A stretch of 64,000 nt of DNA from contig JAIPGM010000008.1 of the NCBI GenBank assembly GCA_021735655.1, forward strand, positions 1 through 64,000, read 5' to 3'. Positions within the stretch are counted from its first letter, which is position 1. Every line of letters starts with the position of its first letter. The DNA comes from Candidatus Omnitrophota bacterium (GTDB lineage Bacteria; Omnitrophota; Gorgyraeia; Duberdicusellales; 4484-171). Below are positions 40,541 to 49,211 of the stretch, in pieces. The position numbers were made by a program, and so were the translations under genes. The notes below the pieces were generated by a model. It was given only the letters and a program-made list of their open reading frames with translations, had not been told where the DNA came from and did not search any database.

Positions 40541-42109
40541 TTAGTTTTTATTCATCCCGCTTATTAAAGTGGGATATTTTTTTCGGAGAGGTCGCATAGC
40601 CCGGTCGAGTGCGCGTGTTTGGAGTACACGTAGGCCCTTTGGGTCTCCAGGGTTCGAATCCCTGCCTCTCCGCCATTTTTGAGAGCGGGCAATTTTGGCA
40701 ACTATACTGAACGGCTCGGACCAATAAAATGAAAGGTTTTTGTCTTTCAAAGTATGGTTCGAGCCGTTTGTTTTTAAAAAATCCCTTTTTTGCGACAGGT
40801 TTCCTTGCCAAGCGACAGAACCGGCTAAATTGCAAGAGGTAATGAAGTTTTTAGAGAGTTCGAGCCAGCCGCCGCTTTGTTTCTCTATCTCGCCAAGCCT
40901 TTCCTGTAAATCTTTCTTTTCATTGAGCAATTTAGCCTTCTTATGCTGATATTCTTCCTGCGATATATCACGCTCAACATATAAATCAATAAGCCTTTCT
41001 ATTTTGCCGTCAATTGAGCTAAGTTTATCTTGTAATTGGCGAGATAGAGAAAAAGAGGCTTTGCGATTAATCTCGGCTAATTCATCAAGGCGGTTAAAAA
41101 TAACATCTTTACCATTATCAGGGATAAACACCTGCATTAAGGCTTTATTAACTTGCTCAAGCAAAGCCTCTTCTCGAAGAAACTTTTGCGAACAACGCCT
41201 GATTTTCTTGGTACAACGATAATAAATATGGCCTTTTTGCATTTCAGCGGTAATTGAGCCACCGCACTCACTGCATTTAATAAAGCCTCGAAAGGCAAAT
41301 TTAACTTGGTTACGCTGTTGCGGCCGAGTTTTTCGGGATAATACCTCTTGGCACCTATCAAAAAGTTTCTTCGAGATGAGCGGCGGATGGCTGCCTTCAT
41401 ACATTTCGCCTTTAAACCTGATAACCCCATAGTAAAAAGGATTTTGCAACAGCCTTGCAAGTTTACTCTTATGGACAGGCTTGCCCTTTCTGCCGATTAA
41501 ACCCCAGGTTTTAACCTCCTGCATAAGCTCATAAAGTGAAAAGTTACCCGTGGCGTAAACTTCAAAAATTTTCTTAATATATGGAGAACGTTCAGCATCA
41601 GGAATAATAACTCTGGTTTTACGGTCATTAACATAACCTAAAGGAGCATAAATAGGCCATACGCCACGGCGTAGCTTTTCACGCATACCACGCCTAATAT
41701 TCTCGGAAAGATTATCTATATAATACTTAGATTGTCCAAAAGCGATAGAGAGCATAAACTTACCTTGAGCAGTGTTATCAAAGCGGTAAGTAGGAAAACG
41801 TAAGTCTTTTATAACCCCTAAATCAACCAAATAGATAATCTTACCACCATCAAGAGAGTTTCGGGCAAGCCTGTCCGGATGCCATGCCAAAATACCATCG
41901 GCATTACCACTTTCTAACTGCTGCAAAACAAACTCGAAGATAGGCCGTCCGGGACACTTGGCTGATTTGGCTTCCGAAAATTCATCAACCACAAAGAGGG
42001 ATTCTTTCTTGGCATATTCGCGCAACTCGTTTATTTGGGACTCAATACTAAGGACCTGCCTATCTTCGGCATCAGTAGATTTCCTGGCATATAAAAGATA
42101 TTTTGGCAT
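40541..42109 (-). CDS. Large serine recombinase (resolvase/integrase family)
   Basis: N-terminal resolvase catalytic domain (LYARKSTD...SIESQ nucleophile Ser), recombinase domain, zinc ribbon (CSECGG...YYRC), coiled-coil; the last ~45 codons run antisense through tRNA-Ser, so the tail includes the RDSNP translation of the T-arm. Confidence 0.85.
   Translation of the reverse strand: MPKYLLYARKSTDAEDRQVLSIESQINELREYAKKESLFVVDEFSEAKSAKCPGRPIFEFVLQQLESGNADGILAWHPDRLARNSLDGGKIIYLVDLGVIKDLRFPTYRFDNTAQGKFMLSIAFGQSKYYIDNLSENIRRGMREKLRRGVWPIYAPLGYVNDRKTRVIIPDAERSPYIKKIFEVYATGNFSLYELMQEVKTWGLIGRKGKPVHKSKLARLLQNPFYYGVIRFKGEMYEGSHPPLISKKLFDRCQEVLSRKTRPQQRNQVKFAFRGFIKCSECGGSITAEMQKGHIYYRCTKKIRRCSQKFLREEALLEQVNKALMQVFIPDNGKDVIFNRLDELAEINRKASFSLSRQLQDKLSSIDGKIERLIDLYVERDISQEEYQHKKAKLLNEKKDLQERLGEIEKQSGGWLELSKNFITSCNLAGSVAWQGNLSQKRDFLKTNGSNHTLKDKNLSFYWSEPFSIVAKIARSQKWRRGRDSNPGDPKGLRVLQTRALDRAMRPLRKKYPTLISGMNKN
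40585..40675 (+). tRNA. tRNA-Ser (anticodon GGA), class II with long variable arm
   Basis: Hand-folded: acceptor GGAGAGG/CCTCTCC, anticodon stem CGTGT/ACACG with loop TTGGAGT, variable-arm hairpin GGCCC-TTT-GGGTC, T-arm CAGGG-TTCGAAT-CCCTG, encoded CCA. Confidence 0.75.
40670..40702. repeat. 33-bp perfect inverted repeat, left copy (abuts and includes the tRNA-Ser CCA end)
   Basis: ccgccatttttgagagcgggcaattttggcaac; exact reverse complement at 42243..42275. Confidence 0.85.
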
Positions 42110-42242
42110 GGCTTAAACCTCCCTCTAAGGTTCTGTCGCTTGGCAAAGATGATTTCAGAGATTCTAAGCAAATCTCAGAAATTAGATTAGCGACACCGCA
42201 GGTGGAGCAAAGGAAACCTGGAAGCAAAAAAGTTGATTTTTT

Positions 42243-42275
42243 GTTGCCAAAATTGCCCGCTCTCAAAAATGGCGG
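42243..42275. repeat. 33-bp perfect inverted repeat, right copy
   Basis: gttgccaaaattgcccgctctcaaaaatggcgg; with the left copy it brackets only the recombinase gene. Confidence 0.85.
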
Positions 42276-42456
42276 TGTATAGGGGACGCAGTCCGAACCT
42301 TTTATGCAGCCGAAGGTGGTATTTAATGCCTATGAATTCGGCTGCTGTCTCCCTTATCGGCCCACGTGGGCCGATAAGGCATCCCTGCGGCCTCTCCCTC
42401 GCAAAAATCTATATATTTTTAATGCGGCGGCGGAAAATTTTTTTATTTTTTGTAAA
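42273..42456. repeat. 184-bp structured repeat element, copy A
   Basis: About 93% identical to the reverse complement of 48970..49153; contains a perfect 14-bp hairpin CCTTATCGGCCCAC/GTGGGCCGATAAGG and a 9-bp stem GCAGCCGAA/TTCGGCTGC; differences concentrate in a loop. Confidence 0.8.
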
Positions 42457-42730
42457 TAAGGAGTTTTTGCTCGGGTTCGGCCGCACCCCTTGCCACCTTT
42501 GTTAACATTGCGTATTTAATTATATGATATGGTGTTGATTAAGGCAAGTCATTTCCATCTTGGCAGGGTTTTCCTTATTCTGGTAGCCAGTGGCAAGGGG
42601 GCAGCCTCATCGTGGTGAAAGCCTGGCGTGGTTGGCGGTCTGTTCCGCCCCGCCTATACGGCGTGGCTTGGTGGTTATTGGAAAGTCTTCCTCAAACGCC
42701 TGCCTTCCGGCAGGCTTAGGCTTTCAGCCT

Positions 42731-42762
42731 AAAAATAAGAAAAGCCTGCTCTTCAGGCAGGC
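42731..42762 (-). terminator. Rho-independent terminator for the - strand cargo operon
   Basis: - strand GCCTGCCTGAAGAGCAGGC hairpin followed by TTTTCTTATTTTT. Confidence 0.55.
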
Positions 42763-42866
42763 GCTTTCGTCAGTCTTTTATTCCGCAGTAGCGGAATAAA
42801 AAATATACGACACAATCAATAAAAGATTTAAAAAAGTAAAATAAAAATAGGTAGGCTTAATTCGAA

Positions 42867-43079
42867 TTATGCTAATCCGTAATAATATATCTCTTGGCAA
42901 GGCTCTATCTCTTCCGTCTCTTCCTTTATTCTAGCATAAGGAAGGGAATTCTCATCTATTGGGGCATATTTACCTTCTTTAGTAAGGCAAAGAAACTCAA
43001 TTAATTCCTTCTCTTTTTCATCTTTTTTAGCATATCTTTCCTTATTTCTCATAATCTCACCGCCCGAATTATACCACAT
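42867..43079 (-). CDS. Small acidic hypothetical protein
   Basis: 70-aa ORF directly downstream of and co-oriented with the protease gene. Confidence 0.35.
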   Translation of the reverse strand: MWYNSGGEIMRNKERYAKKDEKEKELIEFLCLTKEGKYAPIDENSLPYARIKEETEEIEPCQEIYYYGLA

Positions 43080-43102
43080 CTTATAGACTTATTCAAGTAA
43101 AC

Positions 43103-44305
43103 TTACTCAAGTACCTTTTTGCCGATTTTTACCTCTAAATCATTCCTTATCCCACTCATATTTATTTCATAACCACAACTACATTTAAGTTTATTATCTT
43201 TCGGAAATGGGATACAACCTTTCTTCTTATAATCTTCATCAATCTTGGGATTGTGTGTGAACTTAGCATATATTTTATGCACTTTACCACATTTAGGACA
43301 CTTAGTATTTATTTCAACAACATCAGGTAATTTAGGCAAACTAGGTATTTTTAGTGGGGCGCTCATTGCGACAGCTTGTTTAAGCAACTTATCATCTTGA
43401 GTAGCAAAAATTTTATATGTAGAACTCGTAGTAAACAACAATCTGCAAACCGTCTGAATTCTGCAGACAATATCTTTTAACACAGGATCATCATCTACTC
43501 TAGTTATCTTTAGCTTTATGCTTTCAAGATCGTCTATCTTTATTGATCTACCATGTGAACGCCATTTACCATGATTTATTAACTCATCTACTATTTCTTT
43601 TGCTCTCTGCGCCTTCATTTCTTCTGTTACTTGAATCTTGTTGGTTTCTGTTTCTTTCCAATTTCTGAATTTATATTTTTTAAGCCACTCAACCACTAAA
43701 TCTTCAGCAAACTTAAGTGAGTGATAGACTCCTTTTAACTCACCAGGGCTTATTTGAGCTACCATAATGGCATCAAAAGGATTAAGTTTCCCTTTATTTT
43801 CGGCTTCCTTCTGTTTCTCATTTACCCACTCAATATAATCAAAAGCCGACATAGCACTTCTGCCGATTTTCATTTGGGCATCTATTGGCCCTAAACTACC
43901 TGTTTTAGTCATAAGAATTTCATCTCCGGACAAAACCATTATAGTACCAGCGCTCTTTGCTTCACCTGAAACAACAAAAGACACCCCGTCAAAATGAGAC
44001 CGTAAGTAATTTACTATTTCCTCAGCAGCCTCACCACTCCCACCAGGTGTTTCTAAATAAATATCAATCTTAGACGAATTTTCCTTATTTCGTAATACAT
44101 CAGCTATCATATAATAATCTTCTTGAGAAAGAGCTATATCAGGAATTGGTTTACCGATAGCGCTTGCAAATACTAATAAAAAGGAATCTCGCTTTTTATT
44201 ATATTTAGATATTAAAGCCATCAATTCTTTCTCTAATTCTTGCGCGCTTAACCTTTTGTTTATATATTCGGTCATTAAACTCATGAAATATCTCCTTAAA
44301 AACAA
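43103..44305 (-). CDS. ClpP-fold serine peptidase of the S49/SDH (SppA-like) family with C-terminal zinc-ribbon
   Basis: YLETPGGSGEAAEEI...SGEAKSAGTIMVLSGDEILM..GSLGPIDAQ resembles the SDH/SppA active-site region; C-terminal CPKCG...CSCG. Confidence 0.55.
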   Translation of the reverse strand: MFLRRYFMSLMTEYINKRLSAQELEKELMALISKYNKKRDSFLLVFASAIGKPIPDIALSQEDYYMIADVLRNKENSSKIDIYLETPGGSGEAAEEIVNYLRSHFDGVSFVVSGEAKSAGTIMVLSGDEILMTKTGSLGPIDAQMKIGRSAMSAFDYIEWVNEKQKEAENKGKLNPFDAIMVAQISPGELKGVYHSLKFAEDLVVEWLKKYKFRNWKETETNKIQVTEEMKAQRAKEIVDELINHGKWRSHGRSIKIDDLESIKLKITRVDDDPVLKDIVCRIQTVCRLLFTTSSTYKIFATQDDKLLKQAVAMSAPLKIPSLPKLPDVVEINTKCPKCGKVHKIYAKFTHNPKIDEDYKKKGCIPFPKDNKLKCSCGYEINMSGIRNDLEVKIGKKVLE

Positions 44306-44575
44306 TTATGTTTTTATACCTTTCAAATTCCCATTGGAGACTTATTTTATCGCAACTTTACTTTTTTTCAACATAAGATTTATACTAAAAATGAGCCCCC
44401 ACTCTTACAGGTGGGGAACTCCCACAAGCTTAGATATATATCTTTGTTATAAAAAAGTCTCTACTCATCAGACAGGCGTCTTCGTCAACCTTATATTCCG
44501 CAGCAGCGGAATATTCCTATATATACCCCGCCCATTAATGACGGTATTAATTATGCTTTGCATTCATATTTGTAA

Positions 44576-45361
44576 TTATTCAAATTCAAGTCTCACAGAA
44601 GCTTTATCACATTTTTTATCACATTTATAACAATTACAATTAGAAGTGTACCACTCAATATTTTTTCGTTCTCCAGGTTTTAATGGCTCACTTCCGATAG
44701 CGTATGTATAATCAGTATTAACTACTTTACCATATTCATTTTTATAGGTAATATGAAATTTAACATTTGTTACTGGTATTTGCGAACCATTATAAATTGT
44801 AGCCTTGCCTTCTACGCTATTTGAGTAACTTGAACCAAACGACCAATCTTCAATTATAACTTTCTGTTTCGCTTCTTCAAGTAACTCATGTTTTTCCATA
44901 TCAGACTTTGAATCATCAGATATATTGTTAAGTTTGGCGTCCGCTACAAACCCATAACTGTCAGAAATCTGCCACTCTGAAAATTTTTTTCTGACGATAA
45001 AAATAGGCTTCCGTTCGAGCTTCATTCCAAAGGCGTTAATTGTCGAGCCATAAACTTGAATCCAATATTTATCCTTTTCTTTTTTTAATGTTTTTAATTT
45101 CCATTTCTCAATTTTAAAATAAGAATATTTTCCCACTAAAAATAGATTTATAGAATAACTCGTATCAAAATATTTTGAAATTTGTTCTAAATCTTGTTCA
45201 TTTAAATATTTTAAAGCAAGATTGACAGTCTTTTCTCCATTATTACTAAAGAGACTATCAATTCCTATTTTTATTGTTTCCCTATTAAAATACCCTAATA
45301 ATATAACAGCTAGTAAGAGAATAAAAATAACGATATGTTTAGCGCTTACATTAATTGTCAT
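44576..45361 (-). CDS. Membrane-anchored/secreted hypothetical protein with Cys-rich C-terminus
   Basis: N-terminal signal anchor; CNCYKCDKKCDK tail. Confidence 0.4.
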   Translation of the reverse strand: MTINVSAKHIVIFILLLAVILLGYFNRETIKIGIDSLFSNNGEKTVNLALKYLNEQDLEQISKYFDTSYSINLFLVGKYSYFKIEKWKLKTLKKEKDKYWIQVYGSTINAFGMKLERKPIFIVRKKFSEWQISDSYGFVADAKLNNISDDSKSDMEKHELLEEAKQKVIIEDWSFGSSYSNSVEGKATIYNGSQIPVTNVKFHITYKNEYGKVVNTDYTYAIGSEPLKPGERKNIEWYTSNCNCYKCDKKCDKASVRLEFE

Positions 45362-45423
45362 TAAATCACTCCTACATTTCTACATTTAATTATAATCTAT
45401 TTAACTTTCTAATAACTAACTTT

Positions 45424-45627
45424 CTATTTTTTATAATTCCAGTCCGTCATTTTATCACTTATGTATTGCTTTAGCTTTTGGTCAAAAATAATCATCATTT
45501 TAGCTTTTGAGTTTTCAGCTAAATCGGCGATTTCTTGAAAAATATTATCAATATCTGAGTTTACTTCTTCAATAATATTCTTGATCTTTTCGCTGTTGTA
45601 GCCTAGATTCATAAGGAATGAGTGCAA
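45424..45627 (-). CDS. Small hypothetical protein
   Basis: 67-aa ORF, co-oriented. Confidence 0.3.
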   Translation of the reverse strand: MHSFLMNLGYNSEKIKNIIEEVNSDIDNIFQEIADLAENSKAKMMIIFDQKLKQYISDKMTDWNYKK

Positions 45628-45771
45628 TAAATTCTCTGTTTCGCTTTTGACAAAATCAGGCCTTTCATCTAACCAGCCTTATTCAAATATATTAAACCAT
45701 CTTTCCGAAATATCCATTTGCTCTCTCATATTATCATCTTTTCATGCTAACATTTTATATTGCCTTACAGG

Positions 45772-45969
45772 TTATTCCAAACAGTTTTTTAGTTTGTTTA
45801 CGCCTACCTGCGCTTTACAGAAAGGACATATTATGCAATTTTTGTCGCTATTGAACAGCTTCTTTAAATTCTCTCGGGCAATCATTTCTTCACAATAAGG
45901 GCATTTAAGAAATTCGGAATCCATGAAACCAAAAAACCCGCCAATGAATTTAGGGTCAATAAAACTCAT
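45772..45969 (-). CDS. Small zinc-ribbon protein
   Basis: CPYCEE...CIICPFC; start overlaps the stop of the upstream HEPN-like gene (ATGA). Confidence 0.4.
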   Translation of the reverse strand: MSFIDPKFIGGFFGFMDSEFLKCPYCEEMIARENLKKLFNSDKNCIICPFCKAQVGVNKLKNCLE

Positions 45970-46529
45970 TGAGTATGGATGCTCTTTTTATTCTTTATCC
46001 AGTCAGATGGAATTTTCCCATAGAGCCTATATATTTCAAGAATTAATCCTTGAACTGTTTCTAAAACACAATATACCGCCCGTGATTCGGGCCATCCCAT
46101 AATAGGTTTAGTGTCATCTGATACGTTCAAATGAACAAGGGCATTTCGTATATTTCTAGCTTCTTTGAAGTCGTTCATTAGATTTCTACTTATATTTTTA
46201 CCATTACAAATTTTTGGAATCCACCTTTGCAATTTTTTTCCCAATGAAACAAATCTTTCTTTTCTTTCTCCTGTAAGGAATTCCTGCTTTTGTTTTGGCA
46301 AAACTTCATTATTTGATACGTATTCTTGAGCAAATTCATTTATAATAGCTTCCAATGCTGTAAAAGCAAAAAGAATAGAAGCAGCCGAAAATCTTCTATA
46401 TTTTAACCTGCCATCTTCTGGTTTAATTTCTTCCGTTCCAAGTGCAGGCATCCCTTGAAATTCTTCATTCATTCTTTCTGCAAAATATTTAGCGTCATTT
46501 AAAAATAATTCGTGCCAATAGTTCCACAT
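45966..46529 (-). CDS. HEPN-like (Rx4H) domain protein, Abi-like
   Basis: Alpha-helical 187-aa protein with ARNIRNALVHL (R-x4-H) motif near the C-terminus. Confidence 0.35.
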   Translation of the reverse strand: MWNYWHELFLNDAKYFAERMNEEFQGMPALGTEEIKPEDGRLKYRRFSAASILFAFTALEAIINEFAQEYVSNNEVLPKQKQEFLTGERKERFVSLGKKLQRWIPKICNGKNISRNLMNDFKEARNIRNALVHLNVSDDTKPIMGWPESRAVYCVLETVQGLILEIYRLYGKIPSDWIKNKKSIHTQ

Positions 46530-46702
46530 TATTTTAGTCGATACGGGTCATTACAAATTTAGTAAAAATAACGCTAAAGCGTAGTATTAAACCTAGAATC
46601 CACCCAGAAATTCCATTTCATTTAAAAACCATATTATTTGTTAAGTTTTATTACGCAATTTTGATAATTAGCTAACCATCTATTCAATCAGTTTACGCCA
46701 AA

Positions 46703-47803
46703 TCACAAATAAGTGCTAATTAACTTTGACAATTCACCCCTATCTATTAACTTTATATTATTAGAACTCGCCAACTTTATAGCCGAACGAGTAAACTCAT
46801 TCGTTGTAATTACCATACCTTTATCTGCTTTGTAATGCTTAATTGCCGCAACAACTTCCTGCACTCCTCTATTAGTTACTTTATTATTATATCGTTTTGC
46901 CTGCACTACGATTTTTTCTCCGAATTTTTCAACAACTAAATCTGCCCCTTGATCGCCAGACAACTTTGTATTTTCTACCTTATATCCCATTTTTTTAAAA
47001 AGTATATTTAGAAAATTTTCAAATTCATATCCTGTAGCTGAATCTAAATCGTATATCGTTAAAGGTTGATGCTGGCTATTGTTCAGTTGTTTTTCAAAAT
47101 GTTCAAGCTTTAGCTTTTGCCTTAATTCATCTATTCGCTGCCTCAACACTTCTTTATCAACAGGATAATGTTTCTCCTGTAATAGACGTTGAAAAGAATC
47201 CATATAAAGCAAGTAGTTTTCACCACATAACTCCAGAAAACGCTTTAAAAAAGATTCTATTCCATCAGGATTATTATGCATCATCTTAGCTTTGAAATTC
47301 ATATAATTCTGTTTATCTAATTCACTATCTATTAAACCCCTTAATTCTTCAATATCAAAATTAAAACCTTTTTCAGCCATCAAATCTCTCAAGGTATTAA
47401 GTTCTTCACCGGGTATATTAAGGCTGCAAGAAGTATAGTTGTGTTTTGCTGAAAAGTTTTTTATATATTTGTAACTTTCACTGGAAAGCAACCTTTCTCC
47501 CTCTTTCTTAAATTCTTGTAATGCAAATTGTCTATTTATACGCCATACAATCCATGACACCAATGAAACAAATAATAGTAGAAAGAAAGGTATTGGAAAT
47601 GTTCCGACCAGAGCTATAACTAAAATTCCAACCAAAATTGCAATTGCTGTTACCTTTCCTATATTATCATCCAAAACATTCAAAACGTCCTTCCAGTTTG
47701 AACCTGGCAAATCACACAACTTGATTCGTACAAAGATAGCACTGGCAATAATTCCGGAAAAAATTCCTATATATGCTAAAATATTTTGAGAAATTGAATC
47801 CAT
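46703..47803 (-). CDS. Membrane-anchored restriction-endonuclease-like protein (N-terminal TM helices + C-terminal Mrr_cat domain)
   Basis: C-terminus aligns with Mrr catalytic domain: LFKKMGYKV...SGDQGADLVV...VVQAKRY...GVQEVVAAI...KGMVITTNEFT..AIKLA. Confidence 0.6.
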   Translation of the reverse strand: MDSISQNILAYIGIFSGIIASAIFVRIKLCDLPGSNWKDVLNVLDDNIGKVTAIAILVGILVIALVGTFPIPFFLLLFVSLVSWIVWRINRQFALQEFKKEGERLLSSESYKYIKNFSAKHNYTSCSLNIPGEELNTLRDLMAEKGFNFDIEELRGLIDSELDKQNYMNFKAKMMHNNPDGIESFLKRFLELCGENYLLYMDSFQRLLQEKHYPVDKEVLRQRIDELRQKLKLEHFEKQLNNSQHQPLTIYDLDSATGYEFENFLNILFKKMGYKVENTKLSGDQGADLVVEKFGEKIVVQAKRYNNKVTNRGVQEVVAAIKHYKADKGMVITTNEFTRSAIKLASSNNIKLIDRGELSKLISTYL

Positions 47804-47917
47804 ATTTTTATCCTAAATAATATTCAAAATCACCTGCATTCTATCAATTTAAGCGAATTTTTGCAAGATTTCTAGTTTATCGAGCAGCTTAAACCAATCC
47901 GCCTAAAAATACAAAAA

Positions 47918-47960
47918 ACCTTCGCCATTTCTAACGAAGGTTTTCTTTCTTTTAGCGTCC
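47918..47960 (-). terminator. Bidirectional-looking rho-independent terminator
   Basis: CCTTCGCCATTTCTAACGAAGG hairpin with T-runs on both sides. Confidence 0.5.
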
Positions 47961-48087
47961 TGGATTTAGTCCTTCCAACACGGGACTTTTGCCTGATTGT
48001 CATTTTCAATATAGCTCTGGTTTCTGATTGTGTCAAGGGAAAAAGTCGTTGCTATTCGCTACCCGCCTATCTTATTATCCATTTTAT

Positions 48088-48573
48088 CTAATTATTATTC
48101 GATATTTCAGATTGTGGGAAAGTTACTGGAATAGAAAATTTCACTCTATGGATTGATCCTGTATTTTGCTCTGAAGAACCAGTAGCTTTGCCACCAGCTT
48201 TGACTGTGTAAATTTTGGCAGTTGCATTGATTTCTGCAGAAGAATTCTGATTTTCATTAATCGTTAAAGCTACATCAAATTCTATTGCTTCCATATAGCG
48301 AAGCTTATAATCTTGTTGCTTCCTCTCTTTTAAGGTATTTCCGACAAAGCCATAAACAGGATTTATCTCTCCGCCCGTTTCTTTAGTTTTTTCTTGTGCG
48401 TTTTTGATCCCGTGAAATATTTGCGATAAGGTTTCGGAAATAAAATCTTGTAATTTCATGTTTACTCCTTTTCGTTTTTGTTTTTTGTTTCGAATGGCAA
48501 TAATAAAACTTCCTAAAAAAATAATGAAAGCACCGATTGAAATACTTATAATGATGTTACTTTTTTCCACCAT
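48088..48573 (-). CDS. Single-TM membrane protein, hypothetical
   Basis: N-terminal TM helix plus soluble domain; no motif recognised. Confidence 0.4.
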   Translation of the reverse strand: MVEKSNIIISISIGAFIIFLGSFIIAIRNKKQKRKGVNMKLQDFISETLSQIFHGIKNAQEKTKETGGEINPVYGFVGNTLKERKQQDYKLRYMEAIEFDVALTINENQNSSAEINATAKIYTVKAGGKATGSSEQNTGSIHRVKFSIPVTFPQSEISNNN

Positions 48574-48620
48574 ATTTTTTATTTATAAATTTATTTTTTC
48601 AACTAGCATTAATGAATTCA

Positions 48621-48827
48621 TTAATAAACCAATTCGTTCACCTTAACGTTAAGAACCTTAGCAATTTTCAAAAGAGTTTTAATTGTGGGGTTATCATTTT
48701 TTCCCACTTCTATTTTCGCAAGGGTAGTATGAGTGACATCAGCAAGCTTAGATAACTTATCTTGAGATAGCCCCTGTATTTTTCGTAACTTCTTTATTCT
48801 TTTCCCAATTTTTGCTGCACTTGACAT
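48621..48827 (-). CDS. XRE-family (Cro/C1-type) HTH transcriptional regulator
   Basis: LRKIQGLSQDKLSKLADVTHTTLAKIEVG... Confidence 0.75.
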   Translation of the reverse strand: MSSAAKIGKRIKKLRKIQGLSQDKLSKLADVTHTTLAKIEVGKNDNPTIKTLLKIAKVLNVKVNELVY

Positions 48828-48969
48828 TTGGTATTATATTGTTACAATTATATTCTATGGATAATACTACCTAAAACTTACTTATATTTTAGCAATTTTG
48901 ACATCTTTTGCAAGATTTTTGCATGATAATGCTTTATATAGACAACACCGCGGAAAAATTGAAAATTCG

Positions 48970-49153
48970 TTTACAAAAAATAAAAAAATTTTCCGCCGCC
49001 GCATTAAAAATATATAGATTTTTGCGAGGGAGAGGCCGCAGGGATGCCTTATCGGCCCACGTGGGCCGATAAGGAAGACAGCAGCCGAATTCATAGGCGT
49101 TAGCGAGCACCTTCGGCTGTGTAAAAGGTTCGGACTGCGTCCCCTATACACCG
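48970..49153. repeat. 184-bp structured repeat element, copy B (inverted), immediately upstream of pilin A
   Basis: See copy A; ends 58 bp before the ATG of the pilin gene at 49212. Confidence 0.8.
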
Positions 49154-49211
49154 TTTTTACATCTACCACCTACCTATTCCAAAACTAACTCAATAGTGAT
49201 ATAATCTAACT

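Follow-up and report, generated by a model that had tools for sequence, protein, structure and literature searches.

In the NfeD/stomatin pair PH1510/PH1511, the C-terminal region of the partner protein is the substrate of the protease. In the cyclic-oligonucleotide-based antiphage signalling system (CBASS), CapP is a metallopeptidase of the ImmA/IrrE type that is encoded adjacent to CapH. We analysed a 64,000-nt stretch of DNA (hereafter the window) from contig JAIPGM010000008.1 of a Candidatus Omnitrophota bacterium (assembly GCA_021735655.1), in which the gene of a ClpP-fold protease and that of a small partner close a block of minus-strand genes located at 42867-48827. An earlier note had proposed that this block is a single novel defence or abortive-infection (Abi) module, and the open reading frames (ORFs) and domains that it listed are all present where it had placed them. 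Our results point to a different organisation. The cargo appears to be a mosaic, in which at least four or five units were acquired independently and are transcribed independently, and not one system; we give this reading, including the mechanism proposed below for the protease cassette, a probability of about 0.68.

In our best reading, the first unit consists of an XRE-family helix-turn-helix (HTH) regulator of 68 aa (48621-48827) and of TM161, a 161-aa protein with one N-terminal transmembrane (TM) segment (48088-48573). The second is a stand-alone, membrane-anchored nuclease of the Mrr family (Mrr-TM; 366 aa, 46703-47803). The third associates a near-orphan HEPN protein of 187 aa (45966-46529), carrying the Rx4H motif, with a translationally coupled Zn-ribbon protein of 65 aa (45772-45969). 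The fourth is TM261 (261 aa, 44576-45361), in which a single N-terminal TM segment is combined with a C-terminus rich in Cys. The fifth is an autonomous cassette made of an SDH-type serine protease with a C-terminal Zn ribbon (43103-44284, in an ORF that extends to 44305) and an acidic partner of about 60 aa (61 aa here, 42867-43052).

Wherever co-occurrence of these genes could be tested beyond the islet it was absent, in 80 genome loci that carry the protease as well as in three contexts of Mrr-TM homologs, and the single module of the earlier note is thus not sustained. The 80 loci were kept for neighbourhood work out of 119 protease relatives found in a scan of one genome per species; the co-occurrence and pairing results cover these genome loci, 13 viral contigs being set aside. 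When all the cargo proteins were compared with the 80 loci (±8 kb) by tblastn, the small partner of the protease was found, together with a single generic XRE match; Mrr-TM, the HEPN protein, the Zn-ribbon ORF, TM161, TM261 and a 67-aa ORF were absent. The three Mrr-TM contexts share no neighbours, since one is a restriction-modification (RM)/IS110 context, another belongs to central metabolism and the last lies beside type IV secretion system genes. Likewise, two distant relatives of the HEPN protein have no Zn-ribbon neighbour. Terminator-like hairpins on the minus strand are found between units. One with a 15-bp stem (47913-47946) follows TM161 and divides the first unit from the Mrr gene; another (44417-44396) comes after TM261, and a third (42762-42744) after the gene of the partner. 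As the earlier note had stated, no named defence system fits the block. The matches obtained with PADLOC v2.0.0 are at the domain level only (the Mrr domain of ZorD, PDC-S02, mREase_IV, the HTH of capH and of C-protein, and RTasHEPN at 3.9e-4); PADLOC returned nothing for the partner, TM161 and TM261, and only a weak partial match to HEC-02B (E = 0.0032) for the protease. Mrr, HEPN and XRE are families typical of defence or toxin-antitoxin (TA) loci, and this part of the proposal is supported, but the joining of these genes in one module is not.

The cassette was characterized from both of its proteins. The full protease ORF encodes 400 aa, and since homologs begin at M8, this residue is likely the true start, which gives a protein of 393 aa. 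The protein matches Pfam SDH_protease (PF01972) with 51.9 bits for a cut-off of 31.3, and its C-terminal Zn ribbon, already recognised in the earlier note, has a CxxC...CxC pattern that is invariant in homologs. It also matches phrog_11747 (3.6e-53) and NCBIfam Clp_like_SDH (NF047768), the latter under its equivalog cut-off (65.5 versus 250 bits); NCBI names some of the homologs 'SDH family Clp fold serine proteinase'. Among 66 species-level sequences, K110, S111, D135, D149, H244 and K249 are near-invariant (at least 97% of the sequences), and the Zn-ribbon cysteines C329, C332, C368 and C370 are conserved to the same extent. The nucleophile candidate, S111, sits in the GEAKSAG motif. With its Ser, His and Asp candidates and its Zn cysteines conserved, the protease is predicted to be an active enzyme. 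Moreover, the mean column identity reaches 78% in 17 sequences from different phyla.

In every readable genome locus, a partner ORF of 53-72 aa lies immediately downstream of the protease gene. The alignment of 72 partner sequences reveals the motif ..LL.FL..TKEGKYA.I[DE].SSL.Y.R.KE, followed by an acidic stretch and then by a conserved C-terminal [YF]Y[SG][VIL][SR]; the median pI is 5.5, and the median gap between the protease and partner genes is about 19 nt. Pairwise identities of the protease and of the partner correlate (r = 0.86, 66 loci). According to this correlation and to the short distance between the genes, the protease and its partner are inherited as a unit, so that the cassette shows the arrangement of a type II TA system, that is, two adjacent co-oriented genes inherited together. 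A 53-nt direct repeat that contains a hairpin brackets the cassette (42746-42798 and 44461-44513, 83% identical). There are no further copies of this repeat in the window; in L001, a related locus of Omnitrophota, the cassette is followed by a single copy. An integron-like array was considered and rejected: there is no tyrosine integrase, a serine recombinase being present instead, and the 53-nt repeat occurs in two copies only.

The cassette is widespread and mobile. We found 2,629 protease homologs at E ≤ 1e-3, and the protease shares 46-86% identity across Omnitrophota, Planctomycetota, Deltaproteobacteria, Nitrospirota, Firmicutes, Bacteroidota, Spirochaetota, phyla of the candidate phyla radiation and archaea, the archaeal carriers in the 80-locus set being several methanogenic or other archaea. 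Cassette-bearing loci in our collection, besides 42867-44284 on the minus strand of the window, are L015-L094, L120 and L124-L136. The families met most often in the 121 ORFs that flank the cassette are N6_Mtase (5), N6_N4_Mtase (4), Eco57I (4) and MmeI (3), as well as phage integrase, resolvase, AAA_21, NB-ARC and FtsK, with two each. In one locus (L005) the cassette begins 2 nt past an MmeI-type enzyme and adjoins a PLD-SNF2 helicase; in L001 it lies beside a ParE-like pair and a tmRNA, and in L008 it stands alone, flanked by two tRNAs. A complete cassette is carried by a plasmid of Leptospira interrogans N116 (WP_060684609.1 and WP_060684610.1), near Rpn and RelB genes, and Clostridium thermobutyricum and Akkermansia have homologs as well. 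The protease also occurs in prophages, and is present in 13 IMG/VR contigs, often about 1-2 kb or less from the contig end, with integrases, CI-like repressors, endolysins and tail, portal and terminase genes as neighbours; the phage genomes of INPHARED contain only partial relatives, with at most 30% identity.

The tmRNA gene is a classic integration site for islands. The cassette is located 0.6-2.5 kb from a tmRNA in L001 (11973-12361), L015 (4502-4873) and L059 (10964-11313), and there is no tmRNA in the window. An Rfam scan of L001, L005 and L008 gave tRNA and tmRNA only. Adjacency to a tRNA was discarded as a general property of the cassette, most of the 40 loci scanned having no nearby tRNA. 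In the literature searched, on SDH/ClpP-like proteases in defence and on PF01972, no publication deals with the protease-partner pair.

What could such a cassette do? We tentatively propose, without putting it as high as an even chance, that the cassette (42867-44284) is an undescribed, self-contained two-gene conflict system, either a protease-based TA system or an Abi system, that moves on prophages, plasmids and islets between Bacteria, the candidate phyla radiation and Archaea. The small protein would most likely be the dedicated ligand of the protease, either as its inhibitor or as its substrate ('bait'), an assignment based on the analogy with the NfeD-stomatin pair and on the logic of TA and Abi systems. 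The partner might dock through its conserved aromatic C-terminal tail; once it is lost or displaced, for instance upon infection or loss of the element, the protease would be freed and could then cleave a conserved cellular or invader target. The Zn ribbon may be a sensing or nucleic-acid-binding appendage. We speculate that the target is self-contained or universally conserved, since the cassette would have to work in Bacteroidota and in methanogens alike.

The comparison with described proteases gives the limits of this analogy. Like NfeD (1510-N) and the other ClpP-fold proteases of the S49/SDH type, the enzyme has a ClpP fold and a G-x-A-x-S-A-G nucleophile motif, and as in the NfeD/stomatin pair the protease gene adjoins a dedicated small partner gene. 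However, the cassette has neither membrane domain nor stomatin, and its partner is a soluble, acidic protein of about 60 aa; moreover, in contrast to its NfeD and ClpP relatives, the protease has an additional helical region of about 100 aa and a Com-like Zn ribbon. The islet also resembles CapH/CapP of CBASS in that a protease and an XRE protein matching PADLOC capH (1.8e-11) are present in the same islet. We rejected this analogy because the protease is here a ClpP-fold serine enzyme located 4 kb from the XRE gene, and because 79 of the 80 genomes have no XRE neighbour. A phage prohead maturation protease was rejected as well, as the window has no structural genes and the genes found alongside the protease in other genomes belong to RM, integrase and housekeeping families, with no capsid genes among them; head-maturation models match the protease weakly and over aa 66-147 only.

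The second unit is a nuclease with an unusual N-terminus. The earlier note had placed an Mrr_cat domain behind TM segments, and this architecture is borne out: the domain spans aa 253-362 (E = 2.9e-35, 121.3 bits for a cut-off of 21), and hydrophobic segments are found at aa ~7-30 and 51-90. D288, Q301 and K303, which form the D...QxK motif, are invariant in 11 members of the family. Relatives of about 320-345 aa share 40-47% identity and have two conserved TM helices followed by a helical middle domain; in some relatives, tetratricopeptide (TPR) repeats replace the TM region. The 366-aa ORF with its TM and helical N-terminus is real, since homologs align from aa 44. The NCBI entry MCF7908541.1 corresponds to the C-terminal 166 aa only, and the public annotation is thus truncated. 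PADLOC mREase_IV and PDC-S02 match the nuclease domain only (aa ~225-365, E of 2e-17 to 3e-13), and in the literature searched PDC-S02 appears in survey lists only. Mrr-TM resembles E. coli Mrr, the type IV enzymes and PDC-S02, with which it shares a C-terminal Mrr_cat bearing D...QxK, encoded by a stand-alone gene. In contrast to E. coli Mrr, no match to the DNA-binding winged-helix domain Mrr_N was found in the protein, the N-terminus being composed instead of two or three TM helices and of a helical domain of about 150 aa. At the membrane, Mrr-TM would probably work as type IV or solo restriction nucleases do.

The third unit has very few relatives. A search of 5.8 billion proteins with the HEPN protein returned only the protein itself, and a HMMER pass over 1.84 billion representatives gave 12 weak and very distant relatives. 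E60, N64, R128 and H133 are invariant in the resulting 13 sequences, which agrees with the Rx4H motif (R128, H133) described in the earlier note. The matches to curated families stay under the cut-offs (18.9 versus 28.4 bits for HEPN_RiboL-PSP and 16.1 versus 24.4 for HEPN_Apea), and only 2 of the 13 sequences match RiboL-PSP. The AlphaFold model, built with the alignment, is a four-helix up-down bundle, as found in HEPN proteins; the single-sequence model was unusable (pLDDT of 42). A profile of the HEPN alignment had no match among PDB sequences. The HEPN stop and the start of the Zn-ribbon ORF share 4 nt, in agreement with the coupling noted earlier; the Zn-ribbon protein has a CPYC...CPFC pattern and weak zinc-finger matches, and forms a singleton cluster. 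An invariant Rx4H and a translationally coupled small partner gene are also features of the HEPN-MNT toxins and of the Abi HEPN domains (AbiA, AbiV). However, the partner is here a 65-aa Zn-ribbon protein and not an MNT nucleotidyltransferase as in HEPN-MNT. The pair may thus be an RNase toxin with its small cognate partner, of the TA or Abi type.

Less can be said about the remaining genes. The XRE gene opens the block, as the earlier note had reported, with an HTH_3 match of 5.7e-16 and domain-level PADLOC matches to HTH_VI, capH and C-protein. TM161 and TM261 have no family match, are singletons and have no relatives in IMG/VR scans. The C-terminal half of TM161 (IEFDVALT...HRVKFSIPV) may bear some resemblance to the 'Trypco2' effector-associated domain, although Pfam gave no match even at E ≤ 10. 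A further minus-strand ORF of 67 aa with a TTG start (45424-45627) is a doubtful gene; it has weak coiled-coil-type matches and is absent from the protein collection.

The cargo belongs to a small accessory islet that extends from about 40.7 to 49.2 kb beside a tRNA-Ser(GGA) gene and comprises a large serine recombinase gene and about 6.5 kb of cargo. The tRNA gene (40585-40675, plus strand) was identified by ARAGORN and by Rfam (tRNA, 47.1 bits). The recombinase gene (40541-42109, minus strand), at the edge of the element, encodes Resolvase (2e-20), Recombinase (6e-15) and Zn_ribbon_recom (6.9e-10) domains; its product matches the phrog_95 integrase over aa 1-472 (4.8e-82) and is CcrB/XisF-like, under the equivalog cut-offs (108 versus 900 bits for CcrB, 90 versus 375 bits for XisF). 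A perfect 33-nt inverted repeat (40670-40702 and 42243-42275), composed of the 3' end of the tRNA-Ser gene and of the 27 nt downstream, brackets the recombinase gene, the last ~50 codons of which cross the repeat and the tRNA antisense. A second inverted block of 21 nt (40802-40822 and 42129-42149) also brackets this gene, and one of its copies lies just upstream of the recombinase ribosome-binding site. The cargo itself is enclosed by 184-nt inverted repeats (42273-42456 and 48970-49153, 96% complementary). None of 100 shuffles held two copies of the repeat core, and these repeats are therefore not due to chance. Between 43 and 49 kb the GC content falls to 0.29-0.35, and the GC skew turns negative, whereas it has the opposite sign in the remaining window. 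The accessory, island-like nature that the earlier note ascribed to this cargo, lying between inverted repeats beside a tRNA-linked recombinase, is thus supported by the repeats, the recombinase, the low GC and the skew. The window proteins are identical to NCBI entries (MCF7908543.1, for example), and every cargo protein forms a singleton cluster at 90%. When an empty site, attL or attR was looked for, exact-protein look-ups of the flanking genes gave the source lineage only, with a contig ending at the tRNA; the repeats at the islet are inverted and not direct.

The 184-nt repeats are part of a structured non-coding element of about 220 nt. A full copy stands at the left, at the 3' boundary of the cargo (42271-42489, minus strand; 203 bits with our covariance model R1), 164 nt upstream of the recombinase start. 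The right copy (48933-49155, plus strand; R1 175 bits) is partial and inverted, with 184 nt 96% identical to the left copy, and is located 58 nt upstream of a pilin-like gene. It is without the upstream GAGCAAAAA block common to the other copies and looks like a partial inverted duplicate. The core of the element, GCGAnGGnGAGGnCGCAnGGATG, is invariant, and a covarying hairpin comes after it. The pairing of this central hairpin is kept by compensatory changes, the few U-G pairs favour the strand shown, and the element copies fold into structures more stable than shuffled sequences (z of -3.4 to -4.2).

Homologs of the element were found by a metagenome pattern scan in L008 (11570-11786), with L113 and L114, and in L095 (3270-3480), L100 (2412-2628) and L098 (260-470). 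The cargo upstream of the element is the protease cassette in L008, L113 and L114, a pair of methyltransferase and restriction-enzyme genes in L100, and an MNT/HEPN pair with a type III restriction fragment in L095; the 1.1-kb contig L098 has no called cargo upstream. In L008, L095, L100 and the window, the element thus has the same orientation and lies downstream of defence-type cargo that varies. The covariance model found no copy in the other 80 protease loci; the element is therefore a feature of certain lineages or hotspots and not of the cassette. For the same reason, and as it follows other cargo in L095 and L100, the 184-nt repeat was rejected as a part of the cassette. We also rejected a small protein-coding gene preceded by a Shine-Dalgarno sequence and starting at an ATG, as the copies do not share a conserved reading frame, and a 6S, signal recognition particle or tRNA-like RNA or a tmRNA 3' end, for which there is no Rfam support and a comparison by eye was unconvincing. 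No Rfam family reached its gathering threshold in the element or in the cargo region, and a scan of IMG/VR for the element gave no match. The element could be a small RNA, a leader, an element end or a recombination substrate; it may represent a new kind of hotspot marker or of small RNA that accompanies variable defence cargo.

Between this element and the cassette lies a GC-rich non-coding stretch (42490-42866). A GC-rich part of about 190 nt (42464-42650) is 75% identical to L015 2294-2477, from a second Omnitrophota genome. A sub-threshold RAGATH-32 match is found at 42663-42738 on the plus strand (E = 9e-6 when 441 nt were searched; 32.6 bits for a gathering threshold of 41.8). The match is opposite to the cargo strand, and its two hairpins double as candidate terminators on the minus strand. 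Nothing relevant was found in the RAGATH-32 literature.

How far do other explanations account for this locus? That the whole block, from the XRE gene to the protease, is one lineage-specific multi-gene Abi system, in which membrane proteins sense while Mrr, HEPN and protease act jointly under the XRE regulator, is very unlikely in our opinion. The genes indeed all point the same way and lie close together between the inverted repeats, with an XRE regulator at the head, and co-occurrence cannot exclude linkage among the four orphan genes. However, the cassette and Mrr-TM, the two components with homologs, occur elsewhere without the other components; candidate hairpin terminators separate the units, the cassette has its own bracketing 53-nt repeats, and a related Omnitrophota genome has the cassette with its own upstream region and a downstream hairpin in another context. 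The absence of any fitting PADLOC system model goes in the same direction. The mosaic that we favour has points against it as well. The scan for terminators was not enriched over shuffles (7 versus 6.5 expected), nor was that for promoters (40 versus 32.5), and because the HEPN protein, the Zn-ribbon ORF, TM161 and TM261 have no relatives or hardly any, their mutual independence is beyond the reach of co-occurrence. Moreover, we infer the boundaries and the mobility of the islet, since no empty site was found via the flanking genes. The 'defence' label rests on family membership and neighbourhood, and we infer the defence role itself, as we do every activity, trigger and target. The enrichment in RM neighbours is qualitative, about 9 of the 121 flanking ORFs being DNA methyltransferases and many neighbours being housekeeping genes, and a conservation as high as that of the protease is unusual for fast-evolving defence genes and could point to another conserved role.

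The housekeeping neighbours and the high conservation of the protease are also in favour of the view that the cargo is not concerned with defence. It would then consist of miscellaneous accessory or addiction genes, such as TA-like stabilisers, a membrane nuclease for DNA uptake or turnover and a regulatory protease, hitch-hiking on the recombinase element, and the cassette would serve the element or the physiology of the host, for example through proteolysis of the partner as NfeD cleaves stomatin. The solved structures nearest to the protease are indeed the stomatin-processing NfeD (1510-N) and ClpP, at E~1e-4 only, and no experimental defence data were found in the literature searched. We nevertheless consider this view unlikely: the phyletic spread is patchy, the cassette crosses domains at high identity and recurs on a plasmid as well as next to RM genes, integrases and repressors, its surroundings include neither stomatin nor a membrane partner, and Mrr and HEPN are hallmark domains of conflict systems. 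An explanation of another kind, to which we give slightly less credit still, is that the 6.5-kb segment is an invertible, phase-variable cassette flipped by the serine recombinase or by homologous recombination, which would switch the expression of the cargo, of the flanking recombinase and pilin-like genes, or of both. The two arms are inverted and 96% identical over 184 nt, the neighbouring serine recombinase gene is itself bracketed by the 33-nt and 21-nt inverted blocks, and both copies of the element point outward, with the orientation of the homologs, towards the recombinase and the pilin-like gene. In independent short-read assemblies of the same lineage, namely L119 (Logan SRR12088349_14647) and a 6,573-nt Logan cargo contig, the sequence ends exactly where the tRNA/33-nt repeat and the 184-nt repeats lie, and the orientation of the cargo in the metagenome-assembled genome therefore rests on the resolution of these repeats. 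Nevertheless, a single orientation is seen in the data at hand, the large serine recombinases of the phrog_95/CcrB/XisF-like type are usually integrases or excisionases and not invertases, and in other genomes the element is single-copy at the cargo boundary. In any case, the internal organisation of the cargo would stay the same.

Altogether, a mosaic of independent units remains our preferred reading, and we advise against listing the locus as a new multi-gene system. The cassette deserves attention for its own sake: very widespread, exceptionally conserved and domain-crossing, it has no specific model in PADLOC v2.0.0. If it proves to be a protease-based TA or defence system of Bacteria and Archaea, its target would likely be a universally conserved protein or its own partner, and prokaryotic immunity would thereby gain a new effector logic. 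Mrr-TM points to a family of membrane-anchored Mrr nucleases with a variable N-terminal module (TM or TPR), and in uncultured lineages the boundary element could help to find defence hotspots. Taken as a whole, this small recombinase-linked islet with its unrelated defence-type genes is an object of an ordinary kind. As in defence islets at tRNA-linked hotspots, for example those of the staphylococcal cassette chromosome (SCC) type moved by the large serine recombinases CcrA/B, the recombinase gene adjoins a tRNA gene, the low-GC cargo gathers unrelated nuclease, TA-like and regulator genes, and this cargo differs between genomes at a conserved boundary element. In contrast to SCC-type cassettes, neither att sites nor an empty site could be defined in the look-ups of the flanking genes, and the cargo is here bounded by 184-nt inverted repeats of a structured non-coding element.

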